From NCBI RefSeq assembly GCF_050320075.1, contig NZ_CP190018.1: a DNA stretch of 64,000 bases; one strand, written 5' to 3'. Shown here one piece after another: positions 39,001 to 42,000 of the stretch. This stretch comes from Escherichia coli. Its GTDB lineage: Bacteria > Pseudomonadota > Gammaproteobacteria > Enterobacterales > Enterobacteriaceae. Made by a program: the position numbers. Position 1 is the stretch's first letter. Each line of letters opens with the position of its first letter.

Positions 39001-42000
39001 ACGATTAATTGACAACATCTGGTACGATTCGCCCGCAGCCATTACTGACCGCGGGCGAAAGTGTAAAGCAGGTGCCTTACCATCCTGACCTGACAACCGG
39101 ATATGCGGGGATTGCTCCCCGCACAACGGCTACTTCTTCGGTTCGTAAGCGAGAACAGCCTTAAACTCAATATTACGTTCCTTCACCGTAAACTCACACA
39201 GCGAGTCGCGGACCAGAAGCGTAAATCCCAGCACCGTTAAACACAGCACTATGACTGCCACAAGGGCATATTTCGTCAGCATGTTTATATTGCCTCCATG
39301 CGAAGAAGGGACTACCATCCAAATTGTTTGGGTTTGGAGTGGCAGCCCCAGGGTTGATAGAAATATCGTCCTGGGGCTTCATCTTTCCAGACCTCAGAGT
39401 AAACCTGAAACCGGAAAGCTTCAGGCACCCGCCGTTATCTTACCCTTCCTTAGCAAAATAACTGTTTATTTATACAGTAAGTCCTGTTTCGGACTTCTCA
39501 ATCCTCATTTGATCAACTGAAGCTGAACCCGTTTTTTTCTGCATGCCTCAATCGTCAAAATTCTTCGCCACCAGTCCGCACTGCCATAACTTGTCATATT
39601 GCAAAATGTAGCCAATTTGCTTCAGTCACCATCATCAAAAAAAGAAACATTCCAGAACTTCCGCATCTCGCCCAGTCGCTCCCACTTCTATACTGAATAG
39701 AAAACGCCAACATAAGAGAAACCTATGCCATTACCCGATTTTCATGTTTCTGAACCTTTTACCCTCGGTATTGAACTGGAAATGCAGGTGGTTAATCCGC
39801 CGGGCTATGACTTAAGCCAGGACTCTTCAATGCTGATTGACGCGGTTAAAAATAAGATCACGGCCGGAGAGGTAAAGCACGATATCACCGAAAGTATGCT
39901 GGAGCTGGCGACGGATGTTTGCCGTGATATCAACCAGGCTGCCGGGCAATTTTCAGCGATGCAGAAAGTCGTATTGCAGGCAGCCGCAGATCATCATCTG
40001 GAAATTTGCGGCGGTGGCACGCACCCGTTTCAGAAATGGCAACGTCAGGAGGTATGCGATAACGAACGCTATCAACGAACGCTGGAAAACTTTGGTTATC
40101 TCATTCAACAGGCGACCGTTTTTGGTCAGCATGTCCATGTTGGTTGCGCCAGTGGCGATGATGCCATTTATTTGCTGCACGGCCTGTCACGGTTTGTGCC
40201 GCACTTTATCGCCCTTTCCGCCGCGTCACCATATATGCAAGGAACGGATACGCGTTTTGCCTCCTCACGACCGAATATTTTTTCCGCCTTTCCCGATAAT
40301 GGCCCGATGCCGTGGGTCAGTAACTGGCAACAATTTGAAGCCCTGTTTCGCTGCCTGAGTTACACCACGATGATCGACAGCATTAAAGATCTGCACTGGG
40401 ATATTCGCCCCAGTCCTCATTTTGGCACGGTGGAGGTTCGGGTAATGGATACCCCGTTAACCCTTAGCCATGCGGTAAATATGGCAGGATTGATTCAGGC
40501 TACCGCCCACTGGTTACTGACGGAACGCCCGTTTAAACATCAGGAGAAAGATTACCTGCTGTATAAATTCAACCGTTTCCAGGCCTGTCGCTATGGGCTG
40601 GAAGGCGTCATTACCGATCCGCATACTGGCGATCGTCGGTCACTAACGGAAGACACCTTGCGTTTACTGGAAAAAATCGTCCCTTCTGCACATAAAATGG
40701 GTGCATCGAGTGCGATTGAGGCCCTGCATCGCCAGGTCGTCAGCGGTCTGAATGAAGCGCAGCTGATGCGCGATTTCGTCGCCGATGGCGGCTCGCTGAT
40801 TGGGCTGGTGAAAAAGCATTGTGAGATCTGGGCTGGTGACTAAGCCGGGAATTGCCTTACAGAAGAATATCCCTGACAATGGTGTTTTAACTTACATTTA
40901 ACAATGTTATGAAACACCCTTTAGAAACCTTGACCACCGCAGCAGGCATTTTGCTGATGGCTTTCCTTTCTTGCCTGCTGCTACCCGCCCCCGCACTGGG
41001 GCTGACGCTGGCACAAAAACTGGTGACCATGTTCCATCTGATGGATCTTAGCCAGCTTTACACTTTATTGTTTTGTCTGTGGTTTTTAGTGCTGGGCGCT
41101 ATTGAGTATTTTGTTCTGCGCTTTATCTGGCGACGCTGGTTCTCGCTGGCGGATTAAACGTCGATTATCGCCGTACTTCGCGGCATACTTTGCTTATTCT
41201 CCTTCGCCTAAAGGAACGTTTATGGATAAGCAATCACTGCACGAAACGGCGAAACGCCTGGCCCTTGAGTTACCCTTTGTCGAGCTTTGCTGGCCTTTTG
41301 GCCCGGAGTTCGATGTTTTTAAAATTGGCGGCAAGATTTTTATGCTGTCGTCGGAGCTGCGCGGCGTCCCCTTTATCAATCTGAAGTCCGATCCACAAAA
41401 ATCCCTGTTAAATCAGCAAATATATCCGAGCATTAAGCCAGGGTATCACATGAATAAAAAGCACTGGATTTCGGTGTATCCCGGAGAGGAAATCTCCGAA
41501 GCGTTACTTCGCGATCTGATCAACGATTCGTGGAATCTGGTGGTTGATGGTCTGGCTAAACGCGATCAAAAAAGAGTGCGTCCAGGCTAAAGCGGGAATC
41601 TATAGCGCATTTTTCTCGCTTACCATTTCTCGTTGAACCTTGTAATCTGCTGGCACGCAAAATTACTTTCACATGGAGTCTTTATGGATATCATTTCTGT
41701 CGCCTTAAAGCGTCATTCCACTAAGGCATTTGATGCCAGCAAAAAACTAACCCCGGAACAGGCCGAGCAGATCAAAACTCTCCTGCAATACAGCCCATCC
41801 AGCACCAACTCCCAGCCGTGGCATTTTATTGTTGCCAGCACGGAAGAAGGTAAAGCGCGTGTTGCCAAATCCGCTGCCGGTAATTACGTGTTCAACGAGC
41901 GTAAAATGCTTGATGCCTCGCACGTTGTGGTGTTCTGTGCAAAAACCGCGATGGACGATGCCTGGCTGAAGCTGGTTGTTGACCAGGAAGATGCCGATGG

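Follow-up and report, generated by a model that had tools for sequence, protein, structure and literature searches.

The exact intergenic region between entD and ybdK (positions 39009–39724) in the analysed stretch of Escherichia coli DNA, a 64,000-nucleotide portion of contig NZ_CP190018.1 referred to here as the window, very probably represents the chromosomal hokE/sokE type I toxin–antitoxin locus in a single-copy, uninterrupted structural form. BLAST comparison of window positions 38200–39900 with CFSAN061763 revealed 100% identity, and the same sequence in CFSAN061763 carries the RefSeq hokE annotation. An earlier note on this DNA had placed a 50-amino-acid Hok peptide on the minus strand at 39130–39282, directly beside entD and without an intervening IS186. 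Both assignments were borne out, the first by the ORF, its Pfam match and the annotation in CFSAN061763, and the second by the correspondence of the interval to the entD–ybdK intergenic region, from which the IS element is absent. The features of the locus are listed in Table 1.

The deduced HokE protein matched the Pfam family HOK_GEF (PF01848) over profile positions 1–42 of 42 (39.8 bits, the cut-off being 22; E=3.3e-10), and it was also matched by NCBIfam Hok models, but below their own cut-offs. Compared with the K-12 peptide, which carries A8 and G25, the window allele carries V8 and R25 and scored higher on the Pfam profile (K-12 allele, 32.1 bits). Relative to the Hok protein of plasmid R1, which scored 76.5 bits, the window peptide is divergent on this profile.

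Table 1. Features of the hokE/sokE locus and its flanks (positions within the window)
Feature	Position	Strand	Description
entD	38388..39008	+	flanking gene, convergent with hokE; start per PGAP
Terminal hairpin of hokE transcript	39028..39059	-	predicted fold and inverted repeat I4; also ends the ~470-bp unit duplicated elsewhere
fbi, 3' fold-back element (AGGCACCU)	39070..39077	-	complementary to tac; 3' of the IS186 site
GC hairpin GCGGGGATTGCTCCCCGC	39105..39122		unoccupied IS186 target, GGGG-N6-CCCC; 8-25 nt past the stop codon of hok
hokE CDS	39130..39282	-	50 codons and TAG stop; allele R25/V8, equal to RefSeq WP_000956470.1
hokE codon 46, UAC (Tyr)	39145..39147	-	next base G, giving a UACG context; read from the sequence
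mok-like overlapping frame	39194..39382	-	62 codons; ATG at 39382, GAGG upstream at 39395-39392
Putative Sok promoter	39290..39318	+	-35 TTGCCT 39290-39295, 17-nt spacer, -10 TACCAT 39313-39318; from the sequence and the K-12 sokE 5' end
SokE antisense RNA, 61 nt	39326..39386	+	5' single-stranded tail, stem-loop, U-rich tail; covers the mok start codon
Sok-target hairpin in hok mRNA (GCCCCAGGACGAUAUUUCUAUCAACCCUGGGGC)	39345..39377	-	complement is the Sok stem-loop; Rfam alignment and folds
ucb-like box (CUUUCCGGUUUCAG)	39405..39418	-	pairs with the mok SD region in predicted folds
tac, hokE mRNA 5' end (GGGUGCCU)	39423..39430	-	position 1 of the Rfam model; pairs with fbi
Putative hokE promoter -10, TAAGAT	39442-39437	-
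LexA (SOS) box AACTGTTTATTTATACAGTA	39460..39479		over the putative hokE promoter -35 region
ybdK	39725..40843	+	flanking gene, divergent from hokE

Leader, antisense RNA and predicted message folding

The leader of hokE (39430 to 39274) matched the full length (1–157) of the Rfam model RF01794, named 'sok', scoring 82.4 bits where the gathering score is 59 (E=1.5e-18). As this match lies on the hok-sense strand, the model depicts the leader whose complement holds Sok. The mok-like frame starts in the leader and ends 88 nt inside hok. It is out of frame with hok because the window has one base more than K-12 and Sakai, at 39368, whereas mok in K-12 reads in frame into hok. The extra-base allele was found in five of 11 sampled hokE copies, the window included, and across the sampled alleles the frame is either 62 codons long and out of phase with hok, 83 codons long and in phase with it, or truncated to 17 or 22 codons. 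No family was found for the mok-like peptide in Pfam or NCBIfam.

The opposite strand encodes a SokE sequence that aligns to the annotated K-12 sokE (b4835) with one mismatch and one indel, and its fold (–32.7 kcal/mol, z=–5.2) consists of a 5' tail plus a stem-loop. The mok and Sok elements that the earlier note had anticipated upstream of hok are present in this region as a mok frame with its SD sequence and a predicted SokE stem-loop, together with the RF01794 leader. The start of SokE, a G, is located 7 nt past the putative –10 hexamer, and the putative –35 hexamer overlaps the hok SD on the opposite strand; both the SD and the promoter hexamers were invariant in the 11 sampled copies. The hexamers match the consensus at eight of 12 positions, for which reason this promoter was missing from the list returned by the consensus scan. 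Since that scan, covering positions 38950–39750, yielded no strong sigma-70 promoter and no intrinsic terminator, the Sok and hok promoters were positioned solely from homology and by inspection. A separate match to mir-1990 at 39328–39396 (19.8 bits against 63, E=0.14) was rejected as a chance match to the Sok hairpin.

In the minimum free energy (MFE) structure of the full-length hokE mRNA (z=–6.3), tac and fbi form 8 bp with pair probabilities of 0.82–0.92, and the same inverted repeat (I6) was detected independently in an inverted-repeat search. Both arms were invariant across the 11 sampled hokE alleles, so that covariation between them does not occur within hokE, and comparison with hokC, in which the 8-bp tac/fbi-like complement includes several G–U pairs, lends weak support to the pairing. 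The hairpin between ucb and the mok SD was predicted at –18.4 kcal/mol in a 56-nt leader, as compared with –5.5 kcal/mol for an enforced tac:ucb pairing, which is therefore 13 kcal/mol less stable. Moreover, in the predicted MFE fold of a 3'-shortened mRNA the mok SD stays in the ucb hairpin. With the mok SD still sequestered and the tac:ucb pairing the weaker one, the R1-type activation switch, i.e. refolding after 3' trimming, was not reproduced for the window locus by thermodynamic prediction.

The locus resembles R1 hok/sok in its Hok/Gef peptide, an overlapping out-of-frame mok, 5'–3' pairing of tac and fbi, a GC hairpin past the stop codon, a cis-antisense Sok with a –35 hexamer that overlaps the SD of hok, and a leader belonging to the same Rfam family. 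Unlike R1 hok/sok, the window locus is chromosomal, would not be expected to serve in plasmid stabilization and has a promoter with a LexA box. This box, of the CTGT-N8-ACAG type, agrees with the consensus in 17 of 20 positions and is the sole match in the 64-kb window, with 0 expected by chance. It is a predicted LexA site, and its overlap with the hokE –35 region is suggested by the 5' end that the Rfam model defines. hokE has been listed among the SOS-induced toxin genes with a Lex box in the promoter (PMC2826370; PMC8406316).

The mechanism by which tac, fbi, ucb, dcb and mok act in R1 has been described (PMC9841398), and it is on this model and the literature that the expected transcription, SOS induction, Sok control and toxicity of hokE are based. 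By analogy, a hokE mRNA of ~400 nt, extending on the minus strand from ~39430 to ~39028, would be produced from a weak promoter overlapped by the LexA box. The membrane toxin Hok would be translated only via coupling to the overlapping mok frame, and the full-length message would remain silent through pairing of its 5' tac with its 3' fbi, while the upstream box would sequester the mok ribosome-binding site. SokE, covering the mok start, would then block and destabilize the activated message.

The empty IS186 target site and the K-12 allele

Annotation of MG1655 (NC_000913.3) gives the gene order ybdK, sokE, hokE, IS186B (608007–609351, insL2) and entD, in agreement with the statement of the earlier note that an IS186 copy separates hokE from entD in K-12. 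With the IS element removed in silico, the K-12 locus (b4415/b4835), which occupies the same ybdK–entD position, is 97.6% identical to the window over 540 bp, and the two alleles have the LexA box position, the SokE sequence, tac, fbi and the hairpin elements in common. They differ in that K-12 carries IS186B in the 3' hairpin together with a 10-bp duplication (...GGATTACTCC–IS186–GGATTACTCC...), whereas the window has neither. Window segments 38202–39119 and 39108–39900 align to either side of the ~1.34-kb IS186 in a K-12 genome, and the sequence duplicated in K-12 is present in the window as a single copy, GGATTGCTCC, at 39109–39118. The alignment thereby established the empty site and the target duplication for which the earlier note had looked to K-12.

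saiSree et al. reportedly described, in 2001, an IS186 target consensus consisting of a G-run, a short spacer and a C-run. A second such insertion is found in K-12 at a different, paralogous locus, hokC (gef)/sokC beside dnaJ, where IS186A interrupts the equivalent GGGG-N6-CCCC hairpin past the hok stop in the same register, flanked by the duplication GGATCACTCC and with an fbi-like segment lying beyond the IS. IS186 has thus targeted this hairpin recurrently, and the window carries it unoccupied.

It is highly improbable that the site became empty through precise excision of an IS186 copy instead of never having been occupied. IS186 does reside at this site, in both orientations, in a large proportion of E. 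coli genomes, and AW1.7 is free of the element despite HokE, EntD and YbdK proteins identical to those of K-12. However, the 10-bp target is present in the window only once, within an intact hairpin that bears no footprint, and the hairpin loop reads ATTGCT as compared with ATTACT in K-12, consistent with an independent allele that is unoccupied. For IS elements in general, precise excision is a rare event.

As hokE is transcribed towards entD, the K-12 insertion is situated 3' of the hok ORF and not in the upstream mok/Sok region. The suggestion in the earlier note that this copy may keep an undisrupted regulatory region consequently stands in one part only: the complete set of hok/sok elements is present in the window, but the upstream mok/Sok region is intact in K-12 too. 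What lies beyond the IS186 site is fbi, from which K-12 transcripts are cut off, and the terminator hairpin is likewise separated; in the window, both remain adjoining hokE. The K-12 arrangement arose by entry of IS186 into the GGGG-N6-CCCC hairpin just past the hok stop, so that fbi and the terminator became parted from the ORF.

The contrast between IS-disrupted K-12 hok loci and the undisrupted loci of wild strains is attributed to Pedersen and Gerdes (1999) in the articles that cite that work (PMC2654758; PMC1635323). The difference between an IS186-free hokE and the K-12 insertion has thus been known since 1999, and the IS186-free form is a common natural one.

Functional status of the uninterrupted copy

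As the earlier note suggested, the copy may be functional: all canonical elements are present, although the mok frame is not that of K-12 and the predicted 3'-truncated mRNA still holds the mok SD. A reading that deserves serious weight, though we consider it somewhat less than probable, is that the locus is structurally complete yet functionally inert, i.e. a decaying hok copy that never reaches killing levels of Hok and for which the absence of IS186 has no phenotype. In a recent preprint, the chromosomal loci hokA of E. coli C, hokB of K-12 and hokC of ECOR24, each either IS-free or from K-12, were reported to show neither post-segregational killing nor activation by rifampicin, but K-12 HokE is employed there as a known-toxic positive control in an overexpression assay, and 42 of 45 homologues were toxic (bioRxiv 10.1101/2025.08.07.668861). 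The hok/sok loci of the ECOR collection have, moreover, been described as active (PMC1635323).

Within the locus itself, the variation of the mok frame among alleles suggests relaxed constraint on mok, whereas none of the 11 sampled copies has a damaged Hok ORF, and the invariance across these copies of tac and fbi, of the SD of hok and of the hexamers of the Sok promoter argues against decay. The sequestered mok SD in the truncated-mRNA fold and promoters that match the consensus at eight of 12 positions or worse are consistent with an inert copy; against this, both copies in strains with a tandem arrangement keep leaders at the level of the Rfam model. Recoding of hokE Tyr46 to Cys by A-to-I editing in a UACG context has been reported (bioRxiv 10.1101/2025.08.07.668861), and the codon found here is the Tyr codon, from which the reported Cys would be reached only by RNA editing, a further point on the side of inertness.

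In K-12, a strain deleted for hokE and five further SOS toxin genes had no persistence phenotype (PMC8406316), which would also suit an inert locus. Such null phenotypes, however, derive from the IS186-disrupted allele and do not test the window allele. Studies of hokE in MG1655, including these SOS toxin deletions (PMC8406316), use an allele with its 3' regulatory end split off by IS186, and uninterrupted strains such as that of the window would be the proper background for tests of hokE function. A bolder proposal, which we hold to be unlikely, is that hokE in uninterrupted strains would be a working SOS-triggered toxin, that the K-12 results indicating no role would be artefacts caused by the loss of fbi and the terminator to IS186, and that the IS186 and IS150 insertions, which a third to half of complete genomes carry, would reflect repeated selection to disarm the toxin and not only target preference. 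Beyond correct annotation of a textbook chromosomal type I toxin–antitoxin system, the significance of the locus is small.

Structural forms among E. coli genomes

In a biased collection of 5426 complete E. coli genomes, and with counts uncorrected for phylogeny, the single-copy uninterrupted form seen in the window was found in 1081 genomes (~20%) and a tandem hokE junction in 2498 (46%), while IS186 occupied the same site in the K-12 orientation in 1874 genomes and in the opposite orientation in 1059, giving 35–54% of genomes with IS186 at the hairpin in either orientation. The uninterrupted arrangement is not rare, and by these counts the locus is an IS hot spot.

The tandem pair, present in O157:H7 Sakai (ECs_0620/ECs_0621) and many other strains, occupies the same intergenic region. 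Its ~470-bp unit corresponds to window positions 39029–39498, with the duplication boundary at 39029. Tandem strains possess two such units, each with an Rfam sok leader, separated by a 34-bp linker; the window, in contrast, has one unit and no linker.

Comparison with the tandem pair of GPEC874 raises the question of whether the single copy in the window is a secondary collapse of such a pair by unequal crossover, with the 5' regulatory half stemming from the ybdK-proximal copy, and the ORF and 3' half from the entD-proximal copy, an origin that we regard as doubtful. Over window positions 39301–39498, identity is 99.0% with copy 2 as compared with 94.9% with copy 1; over positions 39029–39300, it is 98.9% with copy 1 as compared with 97.4% with copy 2. 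In addition, WP_000956470.1 is encoded by the entD-proximal copy in both GPEC874 and ECOCN22, and a crossover between copies would cleanly delete the 34-bp linker, which is absent from the window. The differences involved are nonetheless few (2 versus 10 and 3 versus 7), and the flanking genes of GPEC874 are only 97–98% identical to those of the window, so that the two strains are not closely related. Such a pattern would also arise if each half co-segregated with its adjacent flank by ordinary homologous recombination, and the Sakai copies show no such pattern. A chimeric origin of the window copy is therefore suggestive with GPEC874 but explicable by linkage to the flanks, and we do not claim it.

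In ECOCN22, IS186 sits 3' of both tandem copies, in the orientation opposite to that of K-12 and in the same register of the hairpin.

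Identity of the hokE locus and the empty IS186 site

The entD-ybdK intergenic interval (39009-39724) was found to encode a 50-aa Hok peptide covering the full Pfam Hok/Gef profile (39.8 bits, cut-off 22, E=3.3e-10), and the 157 nt 5' of hokE (39430..39274, minus strand) matched Rfam model RF01794, 'sok' (82.4 bits, gathering score 59). Positions 38200-39900 were 100% identical to E. coli strain CFSAN061763, in which RefSeq lists entD, hokE and ybdK in the same order. The window is E. coli, and these profile matches, together with the identity to an annotated locus, establish that the hokE observation is real and far beyond chance, with hokE contiguous with entD and free of IS186, as the earlier note had claimed. 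The RF01794 model (157 positions) lies on the hok-sense strand and stops at the hok start codon, and, judged from this placement, it represents the leader of the hok mRNA and not the Sok RNA itself, which is ~60 nt long and encoded on the opposite strand at 39326-39386.

Features of the hokE locus in the window and in K-12 MG1655 (MG1655 rows follow the NC_000913.3 annotation)
Feature	Coordinates	Strand	Remarks
entD	ends 39008	+	Flank of hokE interval
hokE ORF	39282..39130	-	Pfam Hok/Gef match
Putative Sok promoter	TTGCCT 39290-39295, 17 nt, TACCAT 39313-39318	+	Upstream of SokE; -35 overlaps hok SD
SokE	39326-39386	+	Aligned to b4835: 1 mismatch, 1 extra base
mok-like frame	ATG 39382 to 39194	-	62 codons, out of frame with hok; GAGG ahead at 39395-39392
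ucb (upstream box)	39418-39405	-	
LexA box AACTGTTTATTTATACAGTA	39460-39479		17/20 consensus positions
ybdK	starts 39725	+	Flank of hokE interval
MG1655 ybdK	606265-607383		
MG1655 sokE	607733-607792		b4835
MG1655 hokE	607836-607988		b4415
MG1655 IS186B	608007-609351		insL2
MG1655 entD	609459-610079		

The statement in the earlier note that K-12 carries IS186 between hokE and entD was borne out by the MG1655 annotation, which runs ybdK, sokE, hokE, IS186B, entD. Alignment to a K-12 genome, a check proposed in the earlier note, revealed the empty site: the aligned window sequence breaks at 39108-39119, around a ~1.34-kb K-12 element carrying the IS186 terminal repeats CATAAGCGCTAACTTAAGGGTTG and bounded in K-12 by a 10-bp direct duplication, GGATTACTCC, whereas the duplicated sequence is single-copy in the window (GGATTGCTCC at 39109-39118). 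There it constitutes the loop and inner stem of a hairpin, GCGGGGATTGCTCCCCGC (39105-39122), located 8-25 nt past the hokE stop codon, which by its sequence represents a clean, unoccupied IS186 target. Strain AW1.7 lacks IS186 at this site despite HokE, EntD and YbdK proteins identical to those of K-12, and the insertion is therefore polymorphic even in a K-12-like haplotype.

At K-12 hokC, IS186A (MG1655 15387-16731) occupies the same register of an equivalent GGGG-N6-CCCC hairpin 3' of the gene, with duplication GGATCACTCC, and on its far side lies an fbi-like segment (fbi being the 3' fold-back element) complementary to the 5' end of hokC. The identical register of the two insertions argues that IS186 recurrently targets the hairpin that follows the stop codon of hok genes. 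In 2001, saiSree et al. reportedly described the IS186 target consensus as a run of G and a run of C separated by a short spacer.

The 3' region of the hokE transcript

Transcription of hokE runs toward entD, so IS186 is positioned 3' of the ORF. Folding of the full-length mRNA, taken to start at 39430, where the Rfam match begins, and to extend to a hairpin at 39057-39030, predicted an MFE of -172.7 kcal/mol (z=-6.3), with the first 8 bases, GGGUGCCU (39430-39423), paired to AGGCACCU (39077-39070) at pair probabilities of 0.82-0.92; the same inverted repeat was independently detected by a repeat finder. In plasmid R1, which carries the prototype hok/sok system, pairing of the mRNA 5' end (tac) with fbi holds the hok mRNA translationally silent (PMC9841398), and the pairing predicted for hokE is this tac/fbi end-pairing. 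Relative to the IS186 site, fbi and the terminal hairpin are both placed towards entD; 1.3 kb of IS therefore separates them from the hokE ORF in K-12, whereas in the window they are contiguous with it.

The regulatory region is thus undisrupted, as the earlier note had proposed, but this applies to the 3' region and not to the upstream mok/Sok region (mok being the frame overlapping hok), which K-12 retains as well, IS186 being outside it. The locus is the known hokE/sokE, and the finding is correct but ordinary, its interpretation requiring this 3'-versus-5' correction. As cited in PMC2654758 and PMC1635323, Pedersen and Gerdes (1999) described K-12 hok loci as IS-inactivated and those of natural isolates as uninterrupted. 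In practical terms, the observation serves only to recall that hokE function should not be tested in a K-12 background.

Distribution and allelic variation of hokE

Among 5426 complete E. coli genomes, a biased collection surveyed using overlapping classes and counts that ignore phylogeny, a contiguous, window-like entD-hokE-ybdK arrangement was present in 1081, an IS186-hokE junction in 1874 (K-12 orientation) or 1059 (opposite orientation), and a Sakai-like tandem duplication junction of a ~470-bp hok unit (equivalent to window 39029-39498) in 2498. The hokE locus attracts insertion sequences.

Tandem hokE pairs between entD and ybdK were observed in O157:H7 Sakai (comparison locus L002, 2599-3254), where the second copy is annotated 'mokC', and in GPEC874 (L010, 1099-1754), the junction corresponding to window 39029/39498. 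Tandem strains carry a 34-bp linker, TTTCGTTTTAAGAGCAATGATGAGTTTTGCCGAC, between the units, which the window lacks. Compared with GPEC874, the unit in the window is closer to the ybdK-proximal copy in its 5' half and to the entD-proximal copy in its 3' half, a mixture that would fit the collapse of a tandem pair into a single copy; since linkage to the flanks accounts for this pattern equally well, such a collapse is retained only as a weak alternative.

The window Hok differs from that of K-12 by A8V and G25R, the R25 allele scoring 39.8 bits against the family profile versus 32.1 for the K-12 allele. An extra base at 39368 places the 62-codon mok out of the hok frame in the window and 4 other sampled copies, while K-12, AW1.7 and, in Sakai and GPEC874, the entD-proximal copy have an 83-codon mok that continues in frame into hok; in two further copies mok is truncated to 17 or 22 codons.

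Further arrangements included ECOCN22 (L011, 1-2523), an example of overlap between the survey classes, in which each tandem copy is followed on its 3' side by an IS186 inverted relative to that of K-12; SLK172 (L013, 647-3455), with IS150 in the hok leader (break near window 39349) besides IS186; and SLDY13 (L014, 1-3472), with IS150 in the leader of a hok gene annotated 'mokC', besides IS186, and ISKox3 upstream.

Upstream elements and evidence on function

Folding of the mok/sok structures, likewise suggested in the earlier note, recovered pairing of ucb with the mok SD region and, for SokE, a 17-nt tail followed by a stem-loop (z=-5.2). The consensus promoter scan did not report the putative Sok promoter pair, which matches at only 8/12 positions; the overlap of its -35 with the hok SD is the arrangement found in R1. 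The LexA box is the sole match in the 64-kb window, where none is expected by chance, and would cover the -35 region of a putative promoter of hokE (-10 TAAGAT at 39442-39437), in agreement with the listing of hokE among SOS-induced toxin genes with a Lex box (PMC2826370; PMC8406316). Codon 46 of hokE is UAC followed by G, a UACG context in which A-to-I editing (Tyr46 to Cys) has been reported for hokE (bioRxiv 10.1101/2025.08.07.668861).

In favour of function, all canonical hok/sok elements are present in the window sequence, and in the 11 sampled copies the Hok ORF, tac, fbi, the hok SD and the hexamers of the Sok promoter are either intact or invariant. Against it, promoters at the locus are weak by the consensus scan, the mok SD stays locked in the predicted fold of a 3'-shortened mRNA, and the mok frame differs among alleles. 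Furthermore, Hok toxicity is reported to need the Cys made by RNA editing, and hokA (E. coli C), hokB (K-12) and hokC (ECOR24) to lack post-segregational killing (bioRxiv 10.1101/2025.08.07.668861), although an earlier paper described ECOR hok/sok loci as active (PMC1635323).

Antisense to the hok/mok leader lies an 89-aa ORF (39251-39520, plus strand), which PGAP lists in CFSAN061763 as 'hypothetical protein' (WP_077634174.1) and elsewhere as a pseudogene with a frameshift or internal stop; this annotation over the Sok/leader region is probably spurious. Other Rfam matches in the window were the ES036 (CssrF) sRNA (38288-38329, plus strand; 42.2 bits, gathering score 37.6), situated in the stretch that separates fepA from the entD start called by PGAP and also present in Sakai and GPEC874, the rnk leader (5998-6106, plus strand; 124.9 bits) and STnc70 (9911-10004, minus strand; 44.1 bits).
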